From the IMG/VR virus record IMGVR_UViG_3300036880_000015, positions 873-64,872 of that record: a stretch of 64,000 nucleotides of DNA. One strand, 5' to 3'. Shown here one piece after another: positions 10,252 through 56,142 of the stretch. The translations under genes were made by a program, and so were the position numbers. The notes under the pieces are model-generated. The model worked only from the letters and a program-made list of their open reading frames with translations. It was not told the DNA's origin and did not search any database. Source of the stretch: a virus. Taxonomy: Duplodnaviria; Caudoviricetes. Each line of letters begins with the position of its first letter. Within the stretch, counting starts at the first letter, position 1.

Positions 10252-10908
10252 TTAGAAAGTGGGATCGCAGTTGATCCAGATGTCGGCGGTTACGTTTGCG
10301 GTGACAGCCGACAGGGCGAGCGCGAGTTTCGAGCAGAGCGGAGCCGAGCCGGACGCCGTGCGCGTCACGATGAAGTTGCCCGAAGCGCCAATCAGCGCGT
10401 CGCCAACTGCTGTCGACGCACACACTGCCGCTGCCGGCAAGAATCCTTTGGTTGCGATGAAGCAGAAATTGCCGTTCAAAGCCGTGGTGGCCGCTGCGCC
10501 GGTCTTGCTGAGGGCGGTGAAGTTCGGCAACAGCCATCCGGCCAGTGAGTTCAGGTTGCCGGTGGCTGCCGGGTTGCCTTCGGAGAAGGTGCCGGTGACG
10601 GTCGTGTACGTCTCGTCTGTCCAGTAGACAGGGGCGGGATACGCGAGCATGGCCGCGGCGGTCGACGAGTTGTAGCGCACATAGCGCACGATCAGCGGAG
10701 CGCCGTACCCGTTGCCGCCGTACAGCATGGTCGGACCCTCGGATGCGCCCGGCGAAAGCAGATACGCCGCGCCGATGGGATTCTGCGCACCATTCGGCCA
10801 GCTTGGCGAGTTGACCGGAGGCTGAGTCGTGATCGTCGACGCATATGTGTCGATCGCGGTGTACAGGTTGCCAGTTGTGATGATCGGAAATTCTGTTCCG
10901 AGAGCCAT
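10252..10908 (-). CDS. Capsid cement/minor capsid protein
   Basis: Directly after the major capsid gene; GGAGG SD before ATG 10908; RYVRY...PVYW...FCFIATKG...GDALI pattern. Confidence 0.6.
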   Translation of the reverse strand: MALGTEFPIITTGNLYTAIDTYASTITTQPPVNSPSWPNGAQNPIGAAYLLSPGASEGPTMLYGGNGYGAPLIVRYVRYNSSTAAAMLAYPAPVYWTDETYTTVTGTFSEGNPAATGNLNSLAGWLLPNFTALSKTGAAATTALNGNFCFIATKGFLPAAAVCASTAVGDALIGASGNFIVTRTASGSAPLCSKLALALSAVTANVTADIWINCDPTF

Positions 10909-14389: not shown

Positions 14390-16180
14390 CTACTTCTTCC
14401 CGTGTGGATGCTGCATCGCGCCCGCCGCGCCGGCCATCGCAATCTTCTCTGCGGCCTCTTCTTTGAGCTCGGCTTCAATCTTCTCTGCGTCAGCTTTTGG
14501 CACGCCGAGCTTGCGATAAAGGCCTTTGCGAGACAAGTCTCCGAACTTGCGCATGACGAACGCCACCTGCACCTCGTCCTGTTTCTCGATAGCCAGTAGA
14601 CTGCCCTTGCGAATCGAGAAGATCGCCTGGCGGACGAACTCTTCCGGCTCCATTCCCTTTTCCAGCCACTGCCCGTAGAGCGGCTCGAAGTCCGCGTCCG
14701 TCAATCCCTTGACGCCGAATTTCTTGATGCGGCTCTTGGAGGTCTCGAACTGCATTTTGTTGGCTGTGACCATCGTGCCGACATCAGTGAGAAAACTGTG
14801 CAGGCCGCGGCCCATGAAGCGAATCGGAATGGACCGGGAGTTCATGATCATCTCCAGCGAGTCGCCGCCGGGAACTTGCTTCTTCTGCGCCACCTGGTTG
14901 ATGGCCGCCGCTCCCGAGGTCATGTCCTGCTCTTTTTCCACATCCTGCTTCATTTGGAGGACGTAGGCCGGCAACTCAGGCGGCTTCGGGAACTCAGGAG
15001 ACTTCGGCGCATTGTTGTTGTACATGATCTTGCCGCCGGGCGCGCCAGGATCCATCGAATCCCAAACTGACTGCGCAAACGCCGCCTTCGGCGCCACCAT
15101 GCGCGGCTCGATCGCCGCCCGGATCATATCCATGATCCCGCCGTTGATCCGGTTCACGATGTCGCTCATCATGGCGATCGGCTCCAAAGGTGACGCGCCA
15201 TTAGGCGACCATGGAACCCGAATCAGCCGGAGCTTGGCGAAGGGATACATCGCGTGCCAGTAGGGATTCGGACCATCCTGCAGGAGCTTGCCGCCGGCCG
15301 CGATAACGAACCTGCCGCGGGGATACCAGAGGCAACCGGGTTCAACCATGTACGACCAGTTGTAATTGGCGTCGCCGACCCGCTTTGTCTCGCCGGTTTC
15401 GTTTTTTGCCCCATCTTTGAACCAAAATTGCTTAAGCATGGCCTTGGGATAGCGCGACCGCTTCCCGTCAGCCTGCTTTTTGCCGAGCAACTTTTTGAGC
15501 GCCGGGTTCAGCCGGACCCACGAGGCTTCGGACATCTTGCCGGGCCTGGACATATCCCCGGTTGGCTCATTGCCTTCGAGATCCGGGTGTACATCGTTGG
15601 CCAAGTCTCCGTAGGCGCGTTTCAGGGTTTCGATGGTCACAGGCCAGCGCGCGATAACGCATTCATCGTCCTGGATACGGCTGCCCGCGCCAATCGTCAT
15701 CACGTTGAGCGGGCCAAGCGGCATGAACTCGCAATCGCCCATTCCGTTGTTGAGCGCGGAGTTCCACTGGATTTTGGCGTAGCCCGTGTGGAGAAGTGCC
15801 CACATCACCGCCTGGGTCAGCTCCGCCTCGAAGTCGGTGAATCGCGCCCACATCCCGATCATCTCGTTGAGTAGGTCTTGAAGTTTAGTAAACTCCTCAT
15901 CCTCGTTAGCGAATTTGACCTGGAAGTCGGGTTCGATGTCAGTAAGCAGGCCGGCCATCTCAACGAATTGCCGAAAGAGGCGGTTGACCGTGGGGCGGGA
16001 GCGTCCAAACCGGGACTTCGCGTTCCACTGCTGGCCGGAGATGTAGTCGATGAGCCGGGAGGTCAGACGGATCTCGCGGGAGTCCGCAAGTTCGCGCTCT
16101 CCCTCTTCGTAAACGGCATCTGCCCAAGCGAGAACATCCCGCTCCAGCGCCTTTTCCGGTCTCTCTTTGAAGTCAGCCAT
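14390..16180 (-). CDS. Portal protein
   Basis: About 596 aa between terminase and head genes; RPTVNR, ALLHTGYAKIQW, LQDGPNPYWHAMYPF and INGGIMDMI..AIEP pattern. Confidence 0.85.
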   Translation of the reverse strand: MADFKERPEKALERDVLAWADAVYEEGERELADSREIRLTSRLIDYISGQQWNAKSRFGRSRPTVNRLFRQFVEMAGLLTDIEPDFQVKFANEDEEFTKLQDLLNEMIGMWARFTDFEAELTQAVMWALLHTGYAKIQWNSALNNGMGDCEFMPLGPLNVMTIGAGSRIQDDECVIARWPVTIETLKRAYGDLANDVHPDLEGNEPTGDMSRPGKMSEASWVRLNPALKKLLGKKQADGKRSRYPKAMLKQFWFKDGAKNETGETKRVGDANYNWSYMVEPGCLWYPRGRFVIAAGGKLLQDGPNPYWHAMYPFAKLRLIRVPWSPNGASPLEPIAMMSDIVNRINGGIMDMIRAAIEPRMVAPKAAFAQSVWDSMDPGAPGGKIMYNNNAPKSPEFPKPPELPAYVLQMKQDVEKEQDMTSGAAAINQVAQKKQVPGGDSLEMIMNSRSIPIRFMGRGLHSFLTDVGTMVTANKMQFETSKSRIKKFGVKGLTDADFEPLYGQWLEKGMEPEEFVRQAIFSIRKGSLLAIEKQDEVQVAFVMRKFGDLSRKGLYRKLGVPKADAEKIEAELKEEAAEKIAMAGAAGAMQHPHGKK

Positions 16181-29399: not shown

Positions 29400-29714
29400 G
29401 CGCCATTTCTGCCATGCCGTAGCCTGTCCGAGTCCTCGCCGACGCGTCCTAGAGGCTCCCATGAGGCAGTTTTCGGCCGGATTCGGGCCTTTCGCGGCTG
29501 CGTGTGAAGATAGCCCGCCAGATTCCCGCGCGCCGTTTTCCCCTCTTTTCCGCCCTCGATAGACAACGTCCGGCGACAAGTTTACTTTCCATGCGTTCGA
29601 GGCCCGGAGAAGGCCAAACAGTACATAAGGCGTCGAAAACAGGGTAAAAGCGCCTTCATTATTTTCTGTGGATAACGCTGGAAGTGTGCGTCTTTATTGA
29701 TTAAAAAATAGTGC

Positions 29715-29746
29715 TTGACATCATGCTTGCTATTAGAGTATAGGTT
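29715..29746 (+). promoter_or_regulatory. Promoter of the rightward early operon
   Basis: TTGACA at 29715 after an A/T-rich UP-like tract; -10 assignment ambiguous. Confidence 0.5.
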
Positions 29747-29800
29747 ATTCAGTGACCTGTGGCAGGGGTCATAGAGGCTCTACCAGAGCCGGGAGCTAAG

Positions 29801-30079
29801 ATGGAAGCCAACAGCCACAATACGCGCGGAGAGTGCCAGAGGTGCGGACGGGTTCGCTCGTTCGTGCTGGCCTCCGCGTTCAATGCTGACGGTTCGTTCC
29901 GGTTTCTGTGCTCATCCTGTGACCGCGTGGAGAGCTGGCAGAATCAGCGCCGTCTATTTGAAGGCATTGCGCCGATCTTCATTGGTGAGCCTGAGCCGGT
30001 AGAAGAAGTGTCGTTGATACTGGATGGGTTCGAGCCGGTATCCAATCAACTGAGTTTGTTTGTGGAGGTTTACCAGTGA
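29801..30079 (+). CDS. Zn-finger hypothetical protein
   Basis: CQRC...CSSC; GGGAG SD. Confidence 0.55.
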   Translation: MEANSHNTRGECQRCGRVRSFVLASAFNADGSFRFLCSSCDRVESWQNQRRLFEGIAPIFIGEPEPVEEVSLILDGFEPVSNQLSLFVEVYQ

Positions 30080-30363
30080 CGGGCCCTGAAGTTCACAATC
30101 TGACCACCGATGAAGTATTCATCTACGACAGCAGCCTAACGCCCGCTCAAGCTGTCCGGAACGCCTACGCTGCAACGATAAGCGGCAACAGTTACGAGTG
30201 GGCCCAGCGTTTCCCATTGTCGATGGTACGCGAGGCGCGCTATGGTTCGCGCGTGGTTTACTCGCTGGGAGATTTCTCCTGCGTCACCATCGACCGGGAG
30301 TATTACAGCGTCAACAATACCACCCGCACCGGGCCTGATGGATGTTTCCCAGCCTTGAGCTAA
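30076..30363 (+). CDS. Hypothetical protein
   Basis: GGAGG SD; GTGA overlap. Confidence 0.55.
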   Translation: MTGPEVHNLTTDEVFIYDSSLTPAQAVRNAYAATISGNSYEWAQRFPLSMVREARYGSRVVYSLGDFSCVTIDREYYSVNNTTRTGPDGCFPALS

Positions 30364-30394
30364 ACGCATCACAACACCTGGGAGAGAGGACAAA

Positions 30395-30634
30395 ATGAAG
30401 GCAATCCGCACAGCTTCGATCTTGCACAACGAATCTGATTATCCTGAGAGCATCCACTTTGGCGAGCGCGTGAAGCTCAATTTGCGCAAAATGGCAGATG
30501 GATGCTACGAATTTTGCATCGGCGAAAACGACGAGACCACTGGTGTATCAGGCTCCACAGTCGCAGATGCTTGTCGTGCAGCACATCGCGCCTGGAATAC
30601 CTCTCATGTATGGGATTTTCGCGCTGCCTGGTAG
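30395..30634 (+). CDS. Hypothetical protein
   Basis: GAGGA SD. Confidence 0.55.
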   Translation: MKAIRTASILHNESDYPESIHFGERVKLNLRKMADGCYEFCIGENDETTGVSGSTVADACRAAHRAWNTSHVWDFRAAW

Positions 30635-30790
30635 CCTAACCGCCGTCAAACGATCATGCGCTTGGCCACCGGCGCCAAGGTTCCGCAAGCCAAGTGTGGG
30701 ATTCATGCCGTTATGGATGCAGTGTCCGCGCTGGACTCCACCATTTCACGTTACTGAACACCGGCCACCAGCCGGAGAGGAGCTAAACCA

Positions 30791-31033
30791 ATGAAAACGT
30801 CCTTCACATACGAAGAGATCGAGCGCCGCTATCCGTTGACCATCGACGCGATGAAGTGGGCCGCCATTCTCTCTACCACCGAGGCCGCGGATTGTGTCCG
30901 AGCCATAGGCGAACGGCGCGGGAGCGGTGAAGCTGTCCAGCATTTCGGCGGGCCTGTTGCCGTATTGCGGGCCGCGCTCCGTTGCCGCCGCTTCGCTCAC
31001 CAGTTGCGCCAGTCACGGAAGGCCGCCCAATGA
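30791..31033 (+). CDS. Hypothetical protein
   Basis: GAGGAG SD; MKWAAILSTTEA motif. Confidence 0.6.
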   Translation: MKTSFTYEEIERRYPLTIDAMKWAAILSTTEAADCVRAIGERRGSGEAVQHFGGPVAVLRAALRCRRFAHQLRQSRKAAQ

Positions 31034-31311
31034 TCGCCCCTCACCCATTCACACCCACGGTCTTTCAAGGCGCGCCGCTCCTCCGCTGTGACCTGTGCGC
31101 GCGCTTCGCCGGAGATCCGCTGCACGTCCTGGCCCTTCCCGGTTGCGAGACCTCCGACACAGACCGCGAGACCGCGCGCCAGTTCCAGCAGGCCGCCGAC
31201 CTCACCGCAGCTATGCGCCAGCCGCGCGCCAGTATTTCGGCCAAGGCTGGCAAGATGGAACGATACGCGCCGCTCTTCTTTGGGACCGGCGACAACCCGA
31301 TTTTGTTTTGA
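31030..31311 (+). CDS. Hypothetical protein
   Basis: ATGA coupling; H...CxxC...H. Confidence 0.5.
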   Translation: MIAPHPFTPTVFQGAPLLRCDLCARFAGDPLHVLALPGCETSDTDRETARQFQQAADLTAAMRQPRASISAKAGKMERYAPLFFGTGDNPILF

Positions 31312-31331
31312 CGCGCCCGGAGGCGCAAACA

Positions 31332-31517
31332 ATGAACCCTTACGGCTATATCGCAATCTTGGCCCTGATCGGCGCCGCCATCTTCTATGCCTTCTACCGG
31401 ATGGACCGGAAGGAAAAGGATAACGCCTATTGGCGCGCAATCGCCACCGAGCAGGCAAGACGCGACAAACTAGCAGCCGAGCGGTACAACCGCGCGGTAA
31501 TGAACCGGGAAGACTGA
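31332..31517 (+). CDS. Small membrane protein
   Basis: GGAGG SD; N-terminal TM segment. Confidence 0.55.
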   Translation: MNPYGYIAILALIGAAIFYAFYRMDRKEKDNAYWRAIATEQARRDKLAAERYNRAVMNRED

Positions 31518-31555
31518 ACCGGAGCCGGCCGCAACCGGCAGAAAGTAGACCACTC

Positions 31556-31753
31556 GTGACCATCCAAGAGAACGCCTGGCAGGGAAACAACGAAGAGGCC
31601 GACGCGCAATTCTGCGACCGGCTCACGAACATTCTAGGCACGGAGCCGAACGTCTCAATTCTTCCACCCGAACCCAAAAACGAGTTTACAACCTTTGACC
31701 CGCTAGGCCTGGCCGTTATCGTCCTGGCCGTGCTTGTTCTCCTCTACCTCTAA
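31556..31753 (+). CDS. Tail-anchored membrane protein
   Basis: C-terminal hydrophobic helix; start codon uncertain. Confidence 0.45.
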   Translation: MTIQENAWQGNNEEADAQFCDRLTNILGTEPNVSILPPEPKNEFTTFDPLGLAVIVLAVLVLLYL

Positions 31754-31803
31754 CCGTTGCCGGAGCGTAACCGGGCCGCGACCAGCGGCAGGAGCTTTAT
31801 AAA

Positions 31804-32745
31804 ATGGCTACTCATTGCCTGAATTGCGACACAACAGCCACCGCATTCTGTGAAGAAAATCACGATCTCGGAGAGCCTGAGACCATCGACACAACACCAG
31901 AACCGGCGGCAGTTCCGGCCACTTGGAACGGTGAACCCGTGAGCGACAATGAATCTTTTGTGGATTCCCTCGACGATCCTGACGAAACCGACGCCAAGCG
32001 GAAAGACCCGCCGGCGAAGGTTCCGGAGTCCGCCCCAGCGCCCACGGTTGATCTTTTTCAGAACCGCATCGACGCCGAAGAGCTCGAAGCGAGAACGGCA
32101 CGGCTCAAGGCGGCCAACGCCGCAAGGGACACGCGCGAGGCTGCCGCGGCACCGTTTGAAGCCCTGGCCGAGCAGATGAAGGCGGGCGTCAAGGTTGCCG
32201 TGGTTCCGCAGTTGTTCCCCACTCCGCCGGAGCTGGCCGCACGCATGGCAGGCGAAGCCGACATTCAGCCGAGCAGCCGCATACTTGAGCCCAGCGCAGG
32301 GACGGGAAACCTTATCCGCGCCATTGCCAACGATACGACCGGCTTTGATTGCTTGCGCGAGATTACAGCCGTCGAGTACAATCACGCGCTAGTGGCCCAT
32401 CTTATCGAACAGCGCGAGCGGACACTGTACGCCAACGAAAACAACTTCAAGATCGTTTGCGGAGACTTCATGGAGCAAAACGACAACTTGGGAATGTTTG
32501 ACCGCATCGTAATGAATCCACCATTTCAGAACGGCGCCGACATCAAGCACATCCAGCACGCGGCGAAGTTTCTAGCCGACGGCGGCCGGCTCGTCGCACT
32601 CTGCGCCAACGGTCCCAGGCAGCGCGAGATCCTGAAGCCCATAGCCGAAGAGTCCGGCGGATGGTGGGAAGACTTGCCGGCGGGAACCTTTAGCGAGCAG
32701 GGAACCGGGGTAAATGTAGCCCTGTTGCTCATCTGCAACGGATAG
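31804..32745 (+). CDS. Class I SAM-dependent (N6-adenine-type) methyltransferase
   Basis: LFPTP, ILEPSAGTG, GDF, IVMNPPF, LPAGTF and GTGV motifs. Confidence 0.85.
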   Translation: MATHCLNCDTTATAFCEENHDLGEPETIDTTPEPAAVPATWNGEPVSDNESFVDSLDDPDETDAKRKDPPAKVPESAPAPTVDLFQNRIDAEELEARTARLKAANAARDTREAAAAPFEALAEQMKAGVKVAVVPQLFPTPPELAARMAGEADIQPSSRILEPSAGTGNLIRAIANDTTGFDCLREITAVEYNHALVAHLIEQRERTLYANENNFKIVCGDFMEQNDNLGMFDRIVMNPPFQNGADIKHIQHAAKFLADGGRLVALCANGPRQREILKPIAEESGGWWEDLPAGTFSEQGTGVNVALLLICNG

Positions 32746-32762
32746 CCAGTCCACGCATAGAC
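32745..32762 (+). repeat. 18-bp direct repeat, copy 1
   Basis: GCCAGTCCACGCATAGAC, identical to 36675-36692. Confidence 0.85.
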
Positions 32763-32828
32763 CGAACCCAAGCCCGAGGCCGGCGGCGAGCAGTACCGGC
32801 CAAGTCCACCAGGACAGGAGCAAAGCAG

Positions 32829-33137
32829 ATGGAACCCGAAGTCACTTTAATCAGAGTCCGTGACAATGACGGCAAGCCGTGGGATTCTTCATTTGTCGAA
32901 GTGAACGGAATCAAGCGCGGAATCATCCGGCAAGACAACAGCGGAGGATGGGCAGCCGAAATGATGGGCTGCTACAAGACAACGAACGCCGCTAACGTCT
33001 TCGGATACTTCGCCACTCAACAGCGCGCCATAGACGCCATTGTAAAAGCAACGGCCAACTATCCGGCACACATCGTCTATCCGCCGCAAGACTTCAACGT
33101 CCGCGCCAACTGGAACGCCCTGGGGGTATCGGCTTGA
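32829..33137 (+). CDS. Hypothetical protein
   Basis: AGGAG SD. Confidence 0.55.
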   Translation: MEPEVTLIRVRDNDGKPWDSSFVEVNGIKRGIIRQDNSGGWAAEMMGCYKTTNAANVFGYFATQQRAIDAIVKATANYPAHIVYPPQDFNVRANWNALGVSA

Positions 33138-33385
33138 TCTTCCCAACGATCCACCTCAACGGCACCAGCAAACAACAGTTACTCGATGACTATTGCGACA
33201 TCCGGCAAGCCCTCGACGCCGCAATGGAAAAGATGATCGAGAACGGACCCAACGCCCGCGACTATTACCCGGCAGGCGACCAGGCATTCCGGCAGGCGAT
33301 CAAGGAACACCACGACCGCATCGAACAGATTCACCGGGTACGGTTCGATATTGAGACAATCGCCGAACACATTGCAGACGCTTAA
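33134..33385 (+). CDS. Conserved small phage protein
   Basis: PTIHLNGTS..L...PNARDYYP motif. Confidence 0.6.
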   Translation: MIFPTIHLNGTSKQQLLDDYCDIRQALDAAMEKMIENGPNARDYYPAGDQAFRQAIKEHHDRIEQIHRVRFDIETIAEHIADA

Positions 33386-33399
33386 CGGAAGGACCGCCA

Positions 33400-33567
33400 G
33401 TGAGAGACAATAGCCCATATCGTGAGCCGGGAATCGACGCCAACAGGACACCGCGCGTCGAAATTTACGACGATAGCGCCTGCGCCGCTTGCGGCAGCAC
33501 AGAGAATCTTGGAGTTGTACGCGACGACATTCTTTGTACTGCCTGTGAGCGGAAATATGAAGACTAA
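33400..33567 (+). CDS. Small Zn-finger protein
   Basis: Manual translation with CAAC...LCTAC; GAAGGA SD. Confidence 0.45.
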   Translation: MRDNSPYREPGIDANRTPRVEIYDDSACAACGSTENLGVVRDDILCTACERKYED

Positions 33568-33601
33568 CGCACCAGCAACCCGCAAGGAAAGGAATCAAAC
33601 C

Positions 33602-33778
33602 GTGAAAGTTGAAATCAAAGGAAATGACCTCGTTATCACGATGCCGATGGGCACGCCCACGCGCAGCGCCAGCGGTAAGACTCTTGTAGTCGCCAGCAGC
33701 CGCGGCAACGTCACGACCAATTGCATGATCGACGGCAAGCCGGTAACGGTCGGCCTTAACGCCTACATCAAAGCGTAG
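33602..33778 (+). CDS. Conserved small beta protein
   Basis: SASGKTLVVASSRGN...GLNAY motif; AAGGA SD. Confidence 0.65.
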   Translation: MKVEIKGNDLVITMPMGTPTRSASGKTLVVASSRGNVTTNCMIDGKPVTVGLNAYIKA

Positions 33779-33882
33779 GCCCAGCCCGGCAGCAATGCCG
33801 GCAAGTTCTCAAGAGTCCACCTCCAGGCGAACAGCCACGGCGAGAACGGCACAGCCAACGGACCAGAAAGGAAAGTAATCAA

Positions 33883-34587
33883 ATGCGCACCCTGCTAGAA
33901 ATTGCAAACAGCCCATGGGACCAGGTGCAAACCTGTGAACGGCTCGCCAATGGAGTATGGTGGGTTACGACATCCAGCCACGGCGGCCTGATGGTGGACG
34001 TATCCACCGCAACCGAAGAGTTGAGCGCGCCAGCTCGCCAGCACGGCATGAAGTGGGGCCGGTTCATATGCTACGAGGAAGATTGCCAGTGCGCGATTGC
34101 CTTCTTCGAGCGCCCGGACTGGTACGCCACATTCAAGCGCCGCCCGCTCACCGAAGCCGACACCGCCAGCACGCTGAAAACCTGCAAAGATTGGGAATGG
34201 CGCTATTACGAGGCCCGCACCCACACGATCCTTGCGCCCGGCGAGTCGTACTGCAAGGATGAATTTACCTTCAGCCAGGACCACGCCGACGACCTGATTG
34301 TGGTTTCGGCCACCAGCGGCAACAGTTGGGAGCCACCGTTGCCGGCCGGCATGGTCAAGGTGACAGCCGTCAAAGGTGGACGCAATAAGCACGGCGGATA
34401 CACCGGCGAGCGCGAGTTTCTTGTACCGGCGGCAGAGTATCGCGGGACCGATCCGGGGTGCTATCCGTGGAAATTTGCTTTTATTGTTGACCCGGCGCGC
34501 CACCAGGAGATTATCAAGGCGGCGCTTGCGCCCATCGTCGAGCAGCCGCAAAGTTCGCGCCTGTTGCTGCCCATGGCCATTGCCTGA
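33883..34587 (+). CDS. DUF7007-like protein
   Basis: SPW..VQ.....GVWWVTTSSHGG...YEEDC motif. Confidence 0.7.
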   Translation: MRTLLEIANSPWDQVQTCERLANGVWWVTTSSHGGLMVDVSTATEELSAPARQHGMKWGRFICYEEDCQCAIAFFERPDWYATFKRRPLTEADTASTLKTCKDWEWRYYEARTHTILAPGESYCKDEFTFSQDHADDLIVVSATSGNSWEPPLPAGMVKVTAVKGGRNKHGGYTGEREFLVPAAEYRGTDPGCYPWKFAFIVDPARHQEIIKAALAPIVEQPQSSRLLLPMAIA

Positions 34588-34645
34588 ACCCGCGGGCGGC
34601 CACGTCGCCGCCTGCACTTACCCGCAACCACTGCGAAAGGAATTT

Positions 34646-35155
34646 ATGAAAATCGAAGAAATCTACGCAACACCCATCGACGGAGACGGGTGGAGACTGT
34701 TGCCGAATGGTAACAAACTGATGATCGGCGCGAACGTGTCAGCGCCTTACGGCATTGATATTGCCAGCATCGGCGAGGGGGCCAGCATCGGCGAGGGGGC
34801 CAGAATCGGCGCGTGGGCCAGCATCGGCGCGGAGGCCAGCATCGGCGCGTGGGCCAGAATCGGCGCGTGGGCCAGCATCGGCGAGAGGGCCAGCATCGGC
34901 GACAAAGTTCAATGGCTCAAATCTCCTCTTGCCGTACAAGGAACACGTCACATCGTTATCAACTGCGCCCCAGGCCAGATCGGTATCGGGTGTAGATTCT
35001 TCACCTTTGACGAGTTTTTGAAGGCGACACCCAAAGAGCGCACAGCCTACCAAGTAAGCAATGGCTACACGCCCGAAGAATGCGCCGAGTACATCAAGAT
35101 TGTAAAATTTGTCATCGCCAACGGAGTACCGGCAGAAAGCGAGGCCACCGCATGA
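34646..35155 (+). CDS. Left-handed beta-helix (hexapeptide repeat) protein
   Basis: A(S/R)IGxx repeated about 8 times; C-terminal IGC motif. Confidence 0.75.
   Translation: MKIEEIYATPIDGDGWRLLPNGNKLMIGANVSAPYGIDIASIGEGASIGEGARIGAWASIGAEASIGAWARIGAWASIGERASIGDKVQWLKSPLAVQGTRHIVINCAPGQIGIGCRFFTFDEFLKATPKERTAYQVSNGYTPEECAEYIKIVKFVIANGVPAESEATA
34763..34902 (+). repeat. 18-bp coding tandem repeat (about 7.7 copies)
   Basis: Unit GCCAG(C/A)ATCGGCG(A/C)GNNG. Confidence 0.9.
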
Positions 35156-35463
35156 AGTATCTTGTCCGTTGGGAGATTGACTCAGACGCCGCGACACCGC
35201 TCGAAGCCGCAAGAGAGGCGCGCGCGGCACAACTCAGGCCCAACACCACGGCGACCGTCTTCGACGTGTACGAACCAGATGCGCCCTTCACCGAGGAAGA
35301 CAACCAATTCCGCCGTGGACTGCATGGACCCAAGGCAACCCGCATCGACCTGCAAGAGCACGAAGAGGAAATCTTCACCTGCCGCGGATGTGGCCGCGAA
35401 GAGAGCGTATGCAGCGCGGACCCATGCCTAGGCGTGATTGCAGATCGTGAGGGAAGAAATTGA
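35152..35463 (+). CDS. Hypothetical protein
   Basis: YLVRWEID.DA.TPLEAAREA...ATVFDV domain plus CxxC tail. Confidence 0.6.
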   Translation: MKYLVRWEIDSDAATPLEAAREARAAQLRPNTTATVFDVYEPDAPFTEEDNQFRRGLHGPKATRIDLQEHEEEIFTCRGCGREESVCSADPCLGVIADREGRN

Positions 35464-35678
35464 GATCCCGCCGCCTGCCATTCCCTGCCGATCCGCGCTG
35501 GATCGAAGCCCGCTTCACCAGCCATTGCGCCCGCTGCCCGCGTATCATCAAACCGGGAGAGAGTGCCTACTATTTTCCCCAATCAAAAACCATCTTCTGT
35601 GACTCAGAAGATTGCGGCAAGCACGAAGCGCGACTGGTCGAGGCCGCGCTATTCGATGAAAGGATGTGCGCGGCATGA
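35460..35678 (+). CDS. Small Zn-finger protein
   Basis: ARFTSHCARC...I.PGE...FC..C. Confidence 0.6.
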   Translation: MRSRRLPFPADPRWIEARFTSHCARCPRIIKPGESAYYFPQSKTIFCDSEDCGKHEARLVEAALFDERMCAA

Positions 35679-35905
35679 AACACATTGCGGTTTGTTGCGA
35701 CTGGCGACACGGGCGCATCGGGTTTGTAATCACCGCCCCAACTCCTGACGACTGCGAGCGAGTCGCCGACTTACTGGAAAACCGGCTGGGCTACACGGGG
35801 ACCGGATGCGATACTCTCATTGAAGCCGAGCGCACAGCTAAGAGATTGAAAAACTCGAACTGGGGGACGAATCCAGTTTACGGAAAGGTTCACGGCAAAT
35901 CATGA
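35675..35905 (+). CDS. Hypothetical protein
   Basis: ATGA coupling at both ends. Confidence 0.5.
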   Translation: MKHIAVCCDWRHGRIGFVITAPTPDDCERVADLLENRLGYTGTGCDTLIEAERTAKRLKNSNWGTNPVYGKVHGKS

Positions 35906-36159
35906 GGAAAGCCGGTTTCCACCTGAAGCACGGTTACGTGGTTATGGCGATTCCCGACAGCGGCCTGTTCTTGAAAGACGGCCGCCTTGTCTCGGGCCAC
36001 GAGACCGACATGAAGTTTGACGAGCTCATCCTGTACTCACGGGACGAAGACGCCGCCAGGCTCGTCGATCAGTTACGGACGCAATGGGCGGACCCGGACA
36101 ATAACGGCCACCAGTGGAACTTTCACGTCCTGCCCGTCTTAGTTCACGAACGGCTGTAA
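35902..36159 (+). CDS. Hypothetical protein
   Basis: ATGA coupling. Confidence 0.5.
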   Translation: MRKAGFHLKHGYVVMAIPDSGLFLKDGRLVSGHETDMKFDELILYSRDEDAARLVDQLRTQWADPDNNGHQWNFHVLPVLVHERL

Positions 36160-36178
36160 GATACACGGAGGGGAATTT

Positions 36179-36352
36179 ATGAACTTGCAGGTTGATCACG
36201 AAGTTGTGCCGGCGCCGTCCATACTCTGCCGCCACTGCGCCCAGCCCATCGAACAGACCGGGGACGGCGACTGGATACACGCCAGCGGATTTTATTCTTG
36301 CTTCGATGCTGGGTGCTGGAAACAAGCCACACCGAAAGAGGCCACCGAATGA
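36179..36352 (+). CDS. Small Zn-binding protein
   Basis: Manual translation CRHC...WIH...C; GGAGG SD. Confidence 0.5.
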   Translation: MNLQVDHEVVPAPSILCRHCAQPIEQTGDGDWIHASGFYSCFDAGCWKQATPKEATE

Positions 36353-36690
36353 CGATCCAACCCGTACTCTTCGCCCACCTCATCGACGACTGCGCCAGTG
36401 TGCGCGACACCCCGCTTCAGGTCTCCGTCTCCGCGGCGCTGCTCGAAAGCGACTGGCTGGCCGGCGACACGATGGTTGCGGCCAATGCCTTCCATGAAGC
36501 CCTGAGGGCGTTCGTGCAGCCAGCGCAACTCCAGAAGGCGCTGATCGCCGTCCTCGACGTTCACACTACCCACCGCGCCCGGCTGGCCACTGTGCTGACG
36601 GCCGCCGCTCACCGCATAGGCCAGGCCGATTGGCTGGATGAACTGGCCGAGATGAAAGACGACCGTGACAACCCGCCAGTCCACGCATAG
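36349..36690 (+). CDS. Hypothetical protein
   Basis: ATGA coupling; its 3' end carries repeat copy 2. Confidence 0.55.
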   Translation: MTIQPVLFAHLIDDCASVRDTPLQVSVSAALLESDWLAGDTMVAANAFHEALRAFVQPAQLQKALIAVLDVHTTHRARLATVLTAAAHRIGQADWLDELAEMKDDRDNPPVHA

Positions 36691-36692
36691 AC
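36675..36692 (+). repeat. 18-bp direct repeat, copy 2
   Basis: Identical to 32745-32762. Confidence 0.85.
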
Positions 36693-36695
36693 TGA

Positions 36696-36724
36696 TTGAC
36701 AAGGACGCGCCGAAAGTGTACGCT
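36696..36724 (+). promoter_or_regulatory. Sigma70-like promoter
   Basis: TTGACA-17-TACGCT. Confidence 0.65.
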
Positions 36725-36767
36725 TGCAAGTAACCAGACCCGCGACCAGAGCGGACAAAGGAGTGGA

Positions 36768-36959
36768 ATGAGCAACAATCGTAAAACAGAGACGTGTCCG
36801 GCCTGTGAGAGTGGATGGCTACGCCGCCAGGTTCCAAGTCCGACAAGCCCCGGCAAGATGATCACCGTTACCCGTGTCTGCCAGTATTGCGCTGGGTTAG
36901 GCAAGCGTGAGCCGCTACCGGATGCCTTGCGGGAGAGTCTTGAGAGGCAACAAGGTTGA
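36768..36959 (+). CDS. Small Zn-finger protein
   Basis: CPAC...CQYCAG.G; AAGGAG SD. Confidence 0.55.
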   Translation: MSNNRKTETCPACESGWLRRQVPSPTSPGKMITVTRVCQYCAGLGKREPLPDALRESLERQQG

Positions 36960-37072
36960 CATTCGCCGGCCAGCTCCGGCCGCGAATCGCAGTGTTGGGC
37001 CTGGTAATCCAACACCAGCCGGGCTCGCGTTAGAAGCCCGGCACGAGTTTGGAAAGGAAAGGAAAGGAACCA

Positions 37073-37189
37073 ATGAAAGCGACCGAGTTGAAGTTTCCGA
37101 AGATCAGGATGGACATGAAGCGCAGCCTTCGCCGGCGCGCGCAAGCCAGAACCCGCCAAGCGGCGCGGAGAGCGAAAGGGTGCAGGTGA
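37073..37189 (+). CDS. Basic 38-aa peptide
   Basis: MKATELKFPKIRMDMKRSLRRRAQARTRQAARRAKGCR after a triple GGAAA SD-like repeat. Confidence 0.5.
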   Translation: MKATELKFPKIRMDMKRSLRRRAQARTRQAARRAKGCR

Positions 37190-37398
37190 GCGAAGGAACG
37201 AGAGAGCGCTGTTTGGATTGTGATCGGTGGCCGTGTATCTGCGCCATTCTGATAGATGAAGACGAGGATGCCGTGGATGCTGTGCTTTGTGAAGAGTGCG
37301 GCGATGATGTTTGTGAAGGTTGCGGAAGATGCCCTGATTGCGATGGGTGCGACTGCGATGAAGACGAGGAAGATGAGGATTACTACGATGACGAGTAA
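37186..37398 (+). CDS. Cys-rich, highly acidic 70-aa protein
   Basis: 13 Cys and an Asp/Glu tail; GTGA coupling. Confidence 0.55.
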   Translation: MSEGTRERCLDCDRWPCICAILIDEDEDAVDAVLCEECGDDVCEGCGRCPDCDGCDCDEDEEDEDYYDDE

Positions 37399-37903
37399 AG
37401 GAGAAATCTTGAACTCACCCATGCTACCGATCGTTTGCAGTTTGCCGCATTGCGGGAAGACATGGACGCCGACAAACAACTGGCGCGCCATCACCGTTGA
37501 CGACGAAGAGACTATCACGATCTACAAGTGGCCAGTGGCTGAGGCTCAAGGCTTACTCTCGACTGCCCGGCTTGTTTGCGGCCCAGGCCATGCCCAGATG
37601 TGCGTCAGTGACCTGTTGATGCCGGGACCGTCGAAGGATCGGGAATCGACGCTGGTACTGAAGCCACCGTTGACGCGGGAAGGGACGGCGCCACCGCCAG
37701 AAGTTGCTCTCTCCCCCGCCGATGGCGAATGTCTCGGTCCCAGTACATCAGATCCTCTTTTGTCAGCAGCAGCCGCTCCGGAACCCGGTACGTCCGCGTC
37801 TCAACAATCTTCCCCTCAACCTCATCCACAACCATCGAGCCCGTCTCCAGAAGGCCCAGGTCCAGTAGCAGATTCAGCCGGCGAGCCTGCCGCTTTTCGT
37901 TGA
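37388..37903 (+). CDS. Zn-binding hypothetical protein with low-complexity tail
   Basis: C....CGK....NNW...VCGPGHA motif. Confidence 0.5.
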   Translation: MTSKGEILNSPMLPIVCSLPHCGKTWTPTNNWRAITVDDEETITIYKWPVAEAQGLLSTARLVCGPGHAQMCVSDLLMPGPSKDRESTLVLKPPLTREGTAPPPEVALSPADGECLGPSTSDPLLSAAAAPEPGTSASQQSSPQPHPQPSSPSPEGPGPVADSAGEPAAFR

Positions 37904-38051
37904 AGCCGTAGAGTTCCACCAGCCGGTGCAGGGAGATTGCCCGGAAGTGCGACAGTTCAAAGTCGCAGAGCATTTGCAGGAACATCCGGAGCGCCACCTC
38001 GGGCATGTAGTCCGGATTCGATAGTTTGCGATAGGCAACCAAGTTCAGCAT
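37605..38051 (-). CDS. Winged-HTH protein (RepL-like)
   Basis: ISLHRLVELYG...ARRLNLLLDLGLLETG...RTYRV. Confidence 0.5.
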   Translation of the reverse strand: MLNLVAYRKLSNPDYMPEVALRMFLQMLCDFELSHFRAISLHRLVELYGFNEKRQARRLNLLLDLGLLETGSMVVDEVEGKIVETRTYRVPERLLLTKEDLMYWDRDIRHRRGREQLLAVAPSLPASTVASVPASIPDPSTVPASTGH

Positions 38052-38345
38052 GAAGAAAGGATATACCCAAATGGCAAGCCAAAATTGTAAACCTTTTGAG
38101 AAACGCCGTTTGCTTATAGGCGACGATCCTCACGGCTTCAATCTCCGTCGTCATCCCCGCAATGCTCCTGCGGTACGAGCGGCTGGGCGGCATGAGGAAA
38201 AGTGCAAGATGGACGGATTTACACAAGACTTAATGGACGATACTCCGGACGGGGATGTGTGCTGCGGGTTTTGCTGCTCGGCTTGCGATTGGATACGGGA
38301 GTTCGCGTACATCGGGAAGCATCGGCGCGGAAAGGATACACTCAG

Positions 38346-38645
38346 ATGAGCGAAGCATTAAAACCGTGCTGGTGCGGGGCGAAAGCGTACTTGAACACGA
38401 TTGTCCGCGAAGGTTGGCAGGGAAGGTCTGGGGTATATGTGTCCTGCCAACGTAAATCATGCGCTTTGCATGGCCGCGTCTATTCGACTCGGATTAAAGC
38501 CGTCGCCGCATGGAACACGCGCCCGGTCGAAGATGCGCTGGCCGGTGCGCTGAAATTCGTGCAGGAGCACTGTCAACTCTACGGCGCAGCGGACGCGGCA
38601 CGGGAGAAGATCGACGCCGCGCTCAGAAAGGCTGGCGTGCTGTGA
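38346..38645 (+). CDS. Lar-family restriction alleviation protein
   Basis: LKPCWCG.KA...VSC...C...AVAAWNTR. Confidence 0.7.
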   Translation: MSEALKPCWCGAKAYLNTIVREGWQGRSGVYVSCQRKSCALHGRVYSTRIKAVAAWNTRPVEDALAGALKFVQEHCQLYGAADAAREKIDAALRKAGVL

Positions 38646-39409
38646 CCCACGAACCCAACTTTAACCTGATCGATGCCTTAGTCCATCATCGCGACGTGCC
38701 CTACTTCCCTTGGTCCGGAGTCTCTGAGGACCGCTGGGCAGCGCAAGACGCCGTGGTGACCCTCTACGCAGCCCTGCAGCTCCCCAAGCCCCGCATGGCC
38801 TGGTGCCCGTCGCCCGCGGCCATGTTCCGCGCGAGCCGGATGCTGCGCACAATCCAGCACGGGACCGCCTACCAGATGGTTCAAAGCCTCGTGCCCATGG
38901 ACGGTGACCGAATCGAGCGCGAGGCCCGCGTGTCACTGCTGGCCGCCATGATCGATCAGGATGTGGTCACGCAATCCGGCGGCCTGCTGATCGGCATGAT
39001 TCAAGGGGTCTTCGGAAAAAATGTTTACAACATCGAGGCGCTTTGCGACCTCAAGAACCGGATTCAGTTCAAAGACCAAGACCCATCGGGCAGTGTTGCG
39101 CCTGCGCGCTTCTCCGAGCAATGCCTCTGGCCCGTCTTCTATCCCGGCTTCCATGTACCGCGGCTTGATCCTCTCCAGCGCCAGGCGCTCATCATCATGC
39201 CTTTCGCGAAGCTTTGCTGGCTCTGCCGGCCGCCGCTGTTCGTGAAGACGGACGAGTTTGGCTACCTGCACTGCGCAACCGGCCCGGCCGCTGAGTGGTC
39301 CGACGGGTTCCAAGTGTTCTGCGACCGCACGCCTCCCGAGGAGCGCGAGAAGTTGAAGGCCGCGGAGATGCTGGCGCTGCCGGCGGGGGAGGGCGATCAT
39401 GCCGAATAA
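38642..39409 (+). CDS. DUF6745-like protein
   Basis: P....WCPSP and CWLCRPP...DEFGYLHCATGPAAEWSDGF motifs. Confidence 0.7.
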   Translation: MTHEPNFNLIDALVHHRDVPYFPWSGVSEDRWAAQDAVVTLYAALQLPKPRMAWCPSPAAMFRASRMLRTIQHGTAYQMVQSLVPMDGDRIEREARVSLLAAMIDQDVVTQSGGLLIGMIQGVFGKNVYNIEALCDLKNRIQFKDQDPSGSVAPARFSEQCLWPVFYPGFHVPRLDPLQRQALIIMPFAKLCWLCRPPLFVKTDEFGYLHCATGPAAEWSDGFQVFCDRTPPEEREKLKAAEMLALPAGEGDHAE

Positions 39410-39614
39410 TTTGCGGCCATGCCCCTTTTGCGGCAATTCTGCAATGTGGGCGGCATCGCCATTTGAGGGAGACTTCGAGATCCAATGCTCATATCAAGAC
39501 TGCGAGGTGTTGATTATCTGCGGAGGAAAGACTGAAGCTCAAGCCGCGGCCAAGTGGAACCATCGCTGCCCCGATCCATGGAAGGCACCGCCGCCTTGCG
39601 AGGTGCTTCTATGA
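39399..39614 (+). CDS. Lar-family restriction alleviation protein
   Basis: LRPCPFCG...IQC...C...AAAKWNHR. Confidence 0.75.
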   Translation: MPNNLRPCPFCGNSAMWAASPFEGDFEIQCSYQDCEVLIICGGKTEAQAAAKWNHRCPDPWKAPPPCEVLL

Positions 39615-39699
39615 CCTGGCCCCAGATCGTCGCCCTGCCGTGCGCTATGCTGGTTGTCGCTTTCATACGTGTGGGGATCGAACTGTTGAGGCGGAAACC

Positions 39700-40032
39700 C
39701 TAGACTACAAGTTGCGGATTCTGGACTGTAGATAGAGCCGCTTCGACTGGCAAAGTGTACTGGATGAAAGTGCAGATTTCGCACATGATCAGCATCACCA
39801 GAGAGTTGGTATCTTCGTCATACTCCTGCTGAAGCATGGGACTGTTTTGATAGTGACCGCAGCCCGCCGCCATTGACCCTGAGAGCTCGCTGAACGGGTG
39901 CGTCGAGAAGTAATCGACGCCCGTAGCTTGAGCTGGGAATACTTGAGTCCCTGGACCGCCGGGCTGCCGAAACAGCCCGTTCGGCCCGTTAGGTCGGACG
40001 TACATCGTGCCTATGGTCCAAGAATTTGCCAT
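39700..40032 (-). CDS. Hypothetical Zn-binding protein
   Basis: GCGH...CEIC. Confidence 0.55.
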   Translation of the reverse strand: MANSWTIGTMYVRPNGPNGLFRQPGGPGTQVFPAQATGVDYFSTHPFSELSGSMAAGCGHYQNSPMLQQEYDEDTNSLVMLIMCEICTFIQYTLPVEAALSTVQNPQLVV

Positions 40033-54818: not shown

Positions 54819-54997
54819 CTGCGCAATCCTCGCATCTCGCAGTATTGACTATAGGGAATAAGAACAGCCAATGTCTCATGGCGCTTGGTTACGACAAACT
54901 TCAAGCACTCCATCTCTCGCAAGTCTTTTCTTGTAAGACGGCTGAGTTTGGAAATTGACAGATGTTTCGTATCGCCCTTGTTACGCAGATGAGCCAT
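54815..54997 (-). CDS. Phd/YefM-like antitoxin-type protein
   Basis: LSISKL...FVVTKRHETLAVLIPYSQY; TAATG coupling to the integrase. Confidence 0.55.
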   Translation of the reverse strand: MAHLRNKGDTKHLSISKLSRLTRKDLREMECLKFVVTKRHETLAVLIPYSQYCEMRGLRR

Positions 54998-56142
54998 TAC
55001 GCGGTCCTCCGTGGCAGCATCTCCACAATCTTAGCGTTCTCGGGCCGCAGATGCTCCGCGCTATCCCGGCCGCCATAGGTGTTGATCGTCGTCGCGATTT
55101 TGGCGTGACGCATCAGGCCGCGCTGCGTCTCCATGTCGATGCCGAGAGTGCGCATCATGGCGCGGTGCGTATGCCTGAAAGAATGGAAGCCAAGCCCAGG
55201 CAGACCGATGCGCTCGCCAGCCGGCTGCAGGTACTCTGCGCGCAACCAATCTCGATCTAATGGCCTTCCCGTCCGCTCCGAGCAGAAAATCCAGCGGCTC
55301 TTGAGTGCTTCGTGCGTCTTCCAGCCGCGCAGAATTTCGATGAGCGCGTCGTGGAGCGGCAACGTGGCCGCCGAAGTCTTGCTCTTCGTGTCGTTGGCCT
55401 TGCCGTGGACTACGCTGCGCTGGATGTGGATGGTTTTGGCCTCGAAATTGCAGTCTTCCCATCGGAGGCCGAGGATCTCACTGACGCGCAAGCCGAGCCC
55501 TGCCGCCATTTGTACCATGACTTTCACGACCTCCGGCAACTGCGGATCGTCGAGCAATGCCTGGTACTGATCCAACGTGAGGATAACGAGTTCCTTGGCG
55601 CGCGCGTTCCCTTTCAACCTTACCAACTCAAGAGGATTTCTCTGCGTCTGCAGCGCGCCCCACTTCATCCCGTGCTCGATGAGGGTATGGAAGATATTCT
55701 TGACCTGGGCGCAAAACAATGGGGAGACTGGCGGCTTGACGCCGGGTTTGGGGTGGCGCCCGATCACCTTGAGATCTTTGAGCCAATCCTCCACGGCAAC
55801 CATGTCGAGTGAGAACTGGTCGAGGCGCACATCACCCCACCGCTCGCGGATTCTCCGAAAGATTGACTTGTAGCTGGCCGCGGTCGCTTCGCGCTCCGGC
55901 ATGGCCTCGCGCTCGTACTTGTCGATGAGATTGCCCACGGTGATGATCTCTGTCGGCGTGAAGTTGATGATACTGCGCATCTTCTCGGCTGCTTTCTCTG
56001 CCGAGGCCTTCGTCGGATGCTGCTTGATGGTCCCGATGTAATCTGAGCGCTGAATGCCGTCGAGCCGATAGCGCAATCGCCAGATGTCGCCCGACTTCTG
56101 ATGGACTCGAATGACGCTGCCTTTTTGCCAGGAGGTTCGCAT
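54997..56142 (-). CDS. int: Tyrosine recombinase/integrase
   Basis: GLRVSEILGLRWED, K, FHSFRHT, LMRH and TINTY catalytic residues; N-terminal arm-binding region. Confidence 0.93.
   Translation of the reverse strand: MRTSWQKGSVIRVHQKSGDIWRLRYRLDGIQRSDYIGTIKQHPTKASAEKAAEKMRSIINFTPTEIITVGNLIDKYEREAMPEREATAASYKSIFRRIRERWGDVRLDQFSLDMVAVEDWLKDLKVIGRHPKPGVKPPVSPLFCAQVKNIFHTLIEHGMKWGALQTQRNPLELVRLKGNARAKELVILTLDQYQALLDDPQLPEVVKVMVQMAAGLGLRVSEILGLRWEDCNFEAKTIHIQRSVVHGKANDTKSKTSAATLPLHDALIEILRGWKTHEALKSRWIFCSERTGRPLDRDWLRAEYLQPAGERIGLPGLGFHSFRHTHRAMMRTLGIDMETQRGLMRHAKIATTINTYGGRDSAEHLRPENAKIVEMLPRRTA

Follow-up and report, generated by a model that had tools for sequence, protein, structure and literature searches.

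We analysed a stretch of 64,000 nucleotides (nt), called the window throughout, which covers all but the first positions of the 64,872 bases of virus record IMGVR_UViG_3300036880_000015. The minus strand of the window encodes a terminase, a portal protein, a DnaB-type helicase, a DNA methyltransferase and an integrase. Judging from these genes, the record, which comes from peat and measures about 65 kb, is that of a temperate tailed phage. The leftward genes occupy 1-29.4 kb and 39.7-64 kb. Between them lies the sole rightward operon (29.8-39.7 kb), which holds roughly 29 small genes in a list that we curated by hand. The subject of this report is a small hairpin with the letters ACCA in its loop, which recurs six times in the operon, each time just ahead of the Shine-Dalgarno sequence (SD) of a gene. 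We regard this element as real, selected, unnamed and narrow in scope.

All six hairpins that the initial annotation had listed are present in the window, letter for letter (Table 1). Each is followed by GGAG, AGGAG or AAGGA at 0-4 nt past its 3' foot, which agrees with the earlier placement of an SD at this distance, and in all six cases the ATG lies 10-15 nt past the stem. The elements are 12-15 nt long. Their stems are G+C-rich and have 4-5 pairs, and their loops span 4-7 nt with the consensus N-ACCA. They are confined to those heads at which a block of genes must initiate translation alone, that is, behind gaps of 50-156 nt or in the 5' untranslated region (UTR). Most other genes of the operon overlap the stop codon of their neighbour.

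Table 1. Positions of the hairpins and of other features in the window (bp, base pairs; MFE, minimum free energy).
Feature	Position	Strand	Remarks
Sigma-70-like promoter	29715-29744	+	TTGACA 29715-29720, spacer 17-18 nt, TATAGG 29739-29744; operon head
Upstream 7-bp hairpin of the 5' UTR	29757-29774	+	in the MFE fold
Hairpin 1, GGCTC-TACCA-GAGCC	29776-29790	+	SD GGGAGC to 29796; ATG 29801
Hairpin 2, CCGGC-CACCA-GCCGG	30761-30775	+	SD AGAGGAGC to 30783; ATG 30791
Hairpin 3, GCCGC-GACCA-GCGGC	31775-31789	+	SD AGGAGC to 31795; ATG 31804 (methyltransferase)
Small-domain methyltransferase	31804-32745	+	gene after hairpin 3
Hairpin 4, GTCC-ACCA-GGAC	32804-32815	+	SD AGGAGC to 32821; ATG 32829
DUF7007 protein	33883-34587	+	
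Hairpin 5, CGCA-ACCAC-TGCG	34623-34635	+	SD AAAGGAAT to 34643; ATG 34646 (hexapeptide-repeat protein)
Hexapeptide-repeat protein	34646-35155	+	gene after hairpin 5
Hairpin 6, CCGC-GACCAGA-GCGG	36740-36754	+	SD ACAAAGGAGT to 36764; ATG 36768
Lar-like restriction-alleviation protein	38346-38645	+	
Lar-like restriction-alleviation protein	39399-39614	+	
KTSC-domain protein, 522 amino acids	62101-63669	-	also a weak exonuclease PHROG match

Hairpins with an ACCA loop are not in excess as such. A loose scan of both strands of the 64 kb (perfect stem of at least 4 pairs, loop N0-2 ACCA N0-3) found 17 of them, and the mean of 300 dinucleotide shuffles was 16.9. The excess over shuffled sequence that the initial annotation had anticipated appears when the hairpin is taken together with an SD and a start codon. 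Six such sites were observed versus 0.44 expected in the whole window (maximum 3 in 300 shuffles), and the same six versus 0.05 expected in the plus-strand operon (maximum 1). Among the 17 ACCA hairpins, an SD and a start follow only the six in the operon. Of the 26 SD-start heads counted for the operon, ten have a perfect hairpin ahead of the SD, which is of the ACCA type in six. In the minus-strand arms, hairpins occur at 14 of 82 open reading frame (ORF) heads, none being of that type; both lists of heads contain spurious ORFs. Thus, ACCA hairpins docked against an SD are unique to the rightward operon within the window, as had been claimed. When all 256 loop 4-mers were ranked, ACCA headed the list, as 6 of its 17 hairpins stand at gene heads. 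For the next 4-mer the figure was 4 of 41, scattered in coding sequence. ACCA is also the second most enriched 4-mer, after the SD, in the operon's 16 intergenic regions, which total 1,023 nt and in which it occurs 16 times versus 4.6 expected and is spread over 11 regions. The 5-mer ACCAG occurs in the same regions 10 times versus 2.1 expected.

IMG/VR, JGI peat metagenomes and a single 5.8-kb contig in a metagenome-assembled genome (MAG) labelled 'uncultured Acidobacteriaceae' provided relatives of the operon; a blastn search of the INPHARED collection found no related phage. The related loci fall into four types (L001/L002/L005/L006; L003/L007; L004; L040). The host probably belongs to the Acidobacteriaceae, an assignment that we base on the single MAG bin with the 5.8-kb contig. 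Public sequencing runs with parts of the operon carry mostly peat labels, together with two permafrost labels and one freshwater label.

Hairpins 1-4 are found in every relative that covers their position, in all four types, and the ACCA loop is always kept. In hairpin 1 of L003 an A>G change turns one pair into a U.G pair, and in hairpin 3 of L001 the loop reads ACCA in place of GACCA. L004 has a new 6-bp stem, CCGGTT/AACCGG, around the loop CACCA. In contrast, the leader ahead of the 33883 gene has an ACCA that is unstructured, and in L005 these letters read ACAC. The intergenic pieces that bear hairpins are 89-99% identical to those of L005, compared with 76-84% for the genes, and the stretch around hairpin 4 (32745-32821) is 98.7% identical to that of L001 between flanking genes at 76-84%.

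The element is lineage-specific, because more distant phages that encode a homologue of the hexapeptide-repeat protein have no ACCA leader. This leader is absent from all five loci with distant homologues (L076-L080, 36-55% identity). The L076 homologue does have a small hairpin abutting its SD, with the loop CAGCA. The exact 18-mer of hairpin 4 was found in IMG/VR only in a contig already among the relatives, and the 23-mer of hairpin 6 gave no match. The 17-mer of hairpin 2 occurs in 29 contigs. Two of these are the relatives L002 and L040; the other 27 are unrelated, carry the 17-mer without SD and start, and have it mostly in one coding gene. A search for relatives of the protein encoded after hairpin 6 found none, and a search for related loci from an alignment of two sequences found nothing.

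While the hairpin-SD unit stays constant, the genes downstream of it change between relatives. Hairpin 2 stands ahead of three different genes in L001, L003 and L040, and ahead of a fourth in the window. Hairpin 3 precedes the methyltransferase gene in the window and an unrelated 420-codon ORF in L001. Likewise, hairpin 4 is followed by the gene at 32829 in the window and by a homologue of the next gene (33134) in L001. The limits of BLAST homology fall at the unit itself. Homology stops at +0/+1 from the SD for hairpin 1 (L040) and for hairpins 3 and 4 (L005), and at hairpin 2 it starts 4 nt ahead of the stem in each of the four relative loci that extend over this position (L005, L007, L003 and L040). 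The same hairpin-gene joints are seen in contigs of other runs, several of them with short sides (24-27 nt) at 80% likeness; we counted these joints only as agreement where relative loci show the same arrangement. Contigs of one RNA run (X20) cover 18 of 30 bins. 'Hybrid' leader letters in X20 and in another run (X4) matched in no relative locus.

Leaders can also be exchanged ahead of a given gene. The gene at 30791 has another leader in L003 and L007, and this is the leader of window positions 37054-37084. In the window, it belongs to a stretch with a triple GGAAAGG repeat (37050-37075) ahead of the ATG at 37073. Because the GGAAAGG leader of 37073 precedes the 30791 homologue in L003 and L007, leaders and genes are shuffled independently. 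A 21-nt direct repeat that begins GCCAGTCCACGCATAGAC (family D18) opens two of the hairpin-bearing intergenic regions, those of hairpin 4 and hairpin 6. Both copies lie on the plus strand (32745-32765 and 36675-36695) and are 95% identical. The first is non-coding and directly follows the methyltransferase stop; the second comprises the last codons and the stop of the gene ahead of the hairpin-6 region. This repeat may be a scar of cassette exchange.

Breaks of homology at the edges of hairpins 1-4 (L005, L003, L007 and L040) are of the sort described for the PeSLs of T4-type phages. PeSLs are small regulatory motifs that recur between the genes of hyperplastic regions, where they mark junctions of insertion, deletion and replacement (PMC2839356, PMC4122927). 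A PeSL consists of a promoter and a terminator stem-loop and is conserved in sequence. Our element differs, as it consists of a hairpin and an SD without a promoter (five of six sites) or a terminator, and its stems are not conserved between sites. We rejected PeSL as a class, since the elements are not strong sigma-70 promoters joined to terminator stem-loops.

Five of the six intergenic regions contain the hairpin in their MFE fold. The sixth, that of hairpin 6, contains it in the centroid fold and only partially in the MFE fold. Isolated hairpins have predicted energies of -2.7 to -9.1 kcal/mol, and pair probabilities in a 105-nt context are 0.42-0.99. The stem of hairpin 5 is weak (-2.7 kcal/mol, pair probability 0.47). 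When seven members with 5-bp stems were aligned, all 35 cells paired and two-sided changes were seen in all five pairs, a covariation and a perfect pairing that are largely built in because the sites were picked as hairpins. In four orthologous 5' UTRs, all 48 cells pair. Three stem substitutions distinguish these UTRs, two in the upstream hairpin and one in hairpin 1, and all three give G.U pairs on the sense strand; on the opposite strand the same substitutions would be A-C mismatches. These results favour an RNA-level element, because the substitutions are wobble-compatible only on the sense strand, in a small sample of three substitutions from four 5' UTRs.

We rejected the idea that the hairpin is an insulator that frees the SD. 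Constrained folding without the hairpin never lowers the predicted accessibility of the SD, which rises in four of six cases. Longer folds show the SDs behind hairpins 2 and 3 paired to CUCC-type stretches that lie 40-50 nt upstream, with the ACCA hairpin enclosed (30735-30782 and 31738-31795). The CUCC-type partner upstream of hairpin 2 is not kept in relatives.

Searches of Rfam 15 gave no match at the gathering score in the whole window and none at E<=1 in 29650-37150. Absent from Rfam and conserved in four types of relatives, the hairpin fits the initial description of a selected, unnamed, sense-strand cis element tied to the SD. A covariance model of the 5-bp class, built from ACCA hairpins, recovers its own training sites, with scores of 32.5, 32.7 and 28.2 bits for hairpins 1, 2 and 3. 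Hairpin 4 scores 10 bits. Minus-strand matches of 13-17 bits have poor stems. The model is too specific to serve as a family model, because it gives hairpin 5 only 7.0 bits and misses hairpin 6.

The covariance model and a simple pattern were also applied to genomes of the probable host family. In the MAG genome (G001), ACCAN{4,8}GGAGC occurs 296 times versus 298 for the reversed control, which is no enrichment. The model has matches at E<=1 in 67 of 151 Acidobacteriaceae-family genomes, about as many as expected by chance; strong matches in this set lie only on the phage contig itself, and the 20 best loci are mostly coding. A host-wide leader motif of the Acidobacteriaceae was rejected, because the G001 counts equal the control, the model matches are at chance level and the top ones lie mostly within ORFs. 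Paired matches in L063 were likewise rejected as copies of the element, since they lie inside a minus-strand ORF. One genome of the set, G003, is unpublished, and no result depends on it. A blastn search with the operon against 401 Acidobacteriaceae-family genomes found only contig C168 of G001, which is the same phage contig as L007.

Several known kinds of signal were considered for the hairpins and rejected. A tRNA or tRNA-like ACCA does not apply, as there are no tRNA genes and no hairpin with ACCA directly after it. Intrinsic terminators (a G+C-rich hairpin followed by a U tract) were rejected because the hairpins share no position with any of the 11 terminator-like sites in 29400-39900. 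A consensus scan found no promoter-like site at hairpins 1-5 and one weak site near hairpin 6 (GTGACA..TAGACT). Integron attC sites are imperfect palindromes of 57-141 bp with conserved core sites and an adjacent IntI gene; the present elements measure only 12-15 nt, and the sole integrase gene is about 18 kb away at 54997-56142. The boxB hairpin in the nut site of the lambda N system is similar in stem and loop size, with a 5-bp stem and a 5-nt loop that is read by a phage protein. However, boxB has a GNRA-like loop and a boxA partner, occurs once per early operon and acts on transcription elongation. The six sites, one at each SD, and the N-ACCA loop consensus rule out a lambda-type nut/boxB.

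We rate the element as belonging to a kind already known, that of SD-adjacent RNA operators and intergenic regulatory cassettes, in an ACCA form that appears to be new. A limited literature search, which is not proof of absence, found no published description of such an SD-adjacent ACCA hairpin. In the classical cases, namely MS2 coat protein, E. coli thrS and T4 gp43 and RegA, the 30S subunit has to compete with a protein bound to a hairpin located at the SD or immediately 5' of it. Unlike our element, these operators are single autoregulatory sites or are AU-rich and lack a hairpin, and to our knowledge none of them has an ACCA loop repeated across an operon. A review covers the T4 cases (PMC3014915). 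In phage Mu, Com is a small phage protein that recognises its operator through the loop sequence, CC(N)2-3GAG in a hexaloop; the operator is a short hairpin next to the start region of mom, a DNA-modification gene (PMC6483171). The Mu system resembles ours in having a short hairpin beside a translation start region. It is unlike ours in that Com has one site and opens a neighbouring inhibitory hairpin, whereas there are six ACCA sites here. We rejected the Mu operator itself, because none of the loops TACCA, CACCA, GACCA, ACCA, ACCAC and GACCAGA equals CC(N)2-3GAG. Several small CxxC...CxxC proteins are among the operon products, and Pfam reported no Com family.

We propose a model for how the hairpins could act. 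The six elements would be sense-strand RNA hairpins at the heads of gene blocks that initiate independently. The ACCA loop, at about -15 to -20 relative to the start codon, would be the binding site of a putative loop-specific RNA-binding factor of phage or host origin. The bound factor would meet the platform of the 30S subunit, and initiation would be raised or lowered at all heads together. The hairpin-SD unit also behaves like a portable leader, the same unit serving different genes in the relatives. We infer a sense-strand RNA element read through its loop because ACCA is kept while the stems turn over, the place is fixed, one strand is used and the changes are of the wobble type. A shared translational operator is our best guess because a factor at -15 to -20 would meet the 30S platform, and the logic of such an operator may be comparable to that of Mu Com/mom or of the classical SD-adjacent operators. 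We hold this reading as a whole, a lineage-specific translational operator in RNA next to the SD with a putative loop-specific factor and a second role as portable leader at mosaic junctions, tentatively, as a serious possibility. A broader version strikes us as rather doubtful. It would be an 'ACCA box' regulon in an accessory, anti-restriction phage operon, in which the ACCA loops at all heads with independent translation are read by a single RNA-binding protein or endoribonuclease, the cassette array is switched post-transcriptionally and the hairpin-SD unit is a plug-in adaptor.

Several observations weigh against a translational operator with its own factor. Whole-intergenic folding is mostly unexceptional, with z-scores of -0.97, -2.25, -0.24, -1.74, -3.18 and +0.12 for the six regions. 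Hairpins 5 and 6 are weak and have no diverged relatives. Covariation between orthologues is thin because the relatives are few and close. The leaders look paralogous, CCGCGACCAG being common to hairpins 3 and 6 and ACCCGC to hairpins 5 and 6, and the likeness of the hairpins may for this reason be partly one of descent. L040 retains hairpins 1 and 2 despite a deletion in the first gene of the operon: at about 10826-10845 of this locus, window positions 29797-29978 are missing, which encode the N-terminal zinc-ribbon part. Last, tests of operon proteins revealed no RNA-binding family, and we name no factor. The initial annotation had put forward KTSC or cold-shock proteins. A KTSC-domain protein is indeed encoded (Table 1), with nothing that ties it to RNA; a crude six-frame regular-expression search found no cold-shock motif.

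The hairpin might instead work as an RNA structure that needs no factor, tuning ribosome standby or stabilising the downstream mRNA, with ACCA kept by the ancestry of the leaders or by the structure of the loop. Structures just upstream of the SD can alter initiation more than 100-fold (PMC3936740). The paralogous look of the leaders and the SD-abutting CAGCA hairpin of the L076 homologue are in line with this explanation. It leaves unexplained why the loop stays the same at sites whose stems have been replaced entirely. Moreover, forbidding the hairpin does not lower SD accessibility, and stems of this stability would be weak barriers. We consider a purely structural role unlikely. The location of the hairpins at block boundaries and their fixed short distance to the SD would also suit a processing site, at which the polycistronic RNA is cut by an endoribonuclease specific for the ACCA hairpin. 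Downstream mRNAs would then have their 5' ends at the SD or close to it, and upstream pieces would end in the hairpin. Hairpin-specific RNases of the Cas6/Csy4 type are a precedent for such an enzyme, but no nuclease family turned up in the operon proteins that we tested, and cleavage at the hairpins seems to us improbable.

The junctions themselves suggest a role in DNA, in which conserved leaders are used, or merely persist, as the places where cassettes cross over, like the PeSLs of T4-type phages (PMC2839356, PMC4122927). Such linkers would fit the end of homology at the SD of hairpins 1, 3 and 4, its start just before hairpin 2, the same leader ahead of different genes and the other leader of the 30791 gene in L003. 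However, identity would suffice for a linker, and a hairpin with a compensated stem would not be needed. The stems differ between sites, which have only 4-5 plus 6 nt in common, and the sense-strand G.U changes, the strict orientation and the strict SD spacing are not what a linker calls for. We find it improbable that recombination is the function of the hairpins, and in our view the junctions behave as they do because the element is a self-contained leader. The initial annotation had also offered a DNA hairpin promoter analogous to those of N4. N4-type promoters are read by a virion RNA polymerase and have hairpins with 3-nt loops at early transcription starts. Our hairpins are small, G+C-rich and upstream of genes in an early-looking operon, which recalls that system. 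On the other hand, a sigma-70-like promoter lies at the operon head, a scan of 20 large ORFs turned up no RNA polymerase family, the loops have 4-7 nt, the stem changes wobble on the sense strand, terminator-like U tracts are lacking, and the elements touch the SD and not a transcription start. A single-stranded DNA hairpin promoter of this type, or another transcription signal, is highly improbable, and we dropped this proposal.

If a factor reads the loops, the hairpins would provide multi-site translational control in a temperate phage of a soil phylum that has received little study. This control would be wired to the fastest-turning cassettes, such as the methyltransferase gene, the Lar-like genes and small genes of no assigned function. 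Regulation would thereby be linked to mosaic evolution, as a gene that lands behind a hairpin-SD unit would inherit both ribosome access and control. Additionally, expression could usefully be controlled with a portable 20-nt leader that offers a defined protein handle. If there is no factor, the operon would still be a clear example from nature of selection for compensated mini-hairpins at standby sites.

The rightward operon is hypervariable, roughly 10 kb long and equipped with a promoter of host type. This promoter was identified by eye and is kept in L001, L004, L005, L006 and L040; our consensus scan omits it because the final T is missing from the second hexamer. The operon looks like an accessory, anti-restriction region. 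The two Lar-like genes share it with the methyltransferase gene, which suggests an anti-restriction role for the region. We infer from the promoter and from this gene content that the operon is 'early'. In INPHARED phages, the lone blastn match was one of 132 nt between an acetyltransferase gene of an Aeromonas phage and the repeats of the hexapeptide-repeat gene, which contains seven tandem 18-nt units (34745-34919). A 148-codon ORF lies on the minus strand inside the operon (37605-38051) and overlaps the plus-strand ORF 37409-37903; neither has a Pfam match. The top promoter-like match of the region is also on the minus strand, at 31631-31658 (TTGAGA, 16 nt, TAGAAT; 10/12), and is directed antisense into the operon. 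In the L005 version of the operon, a long array of 30-nt tandem repeats (15440-15920) codes for a repetitive protein of the form AKMP(D/Y)S(V/F)W.

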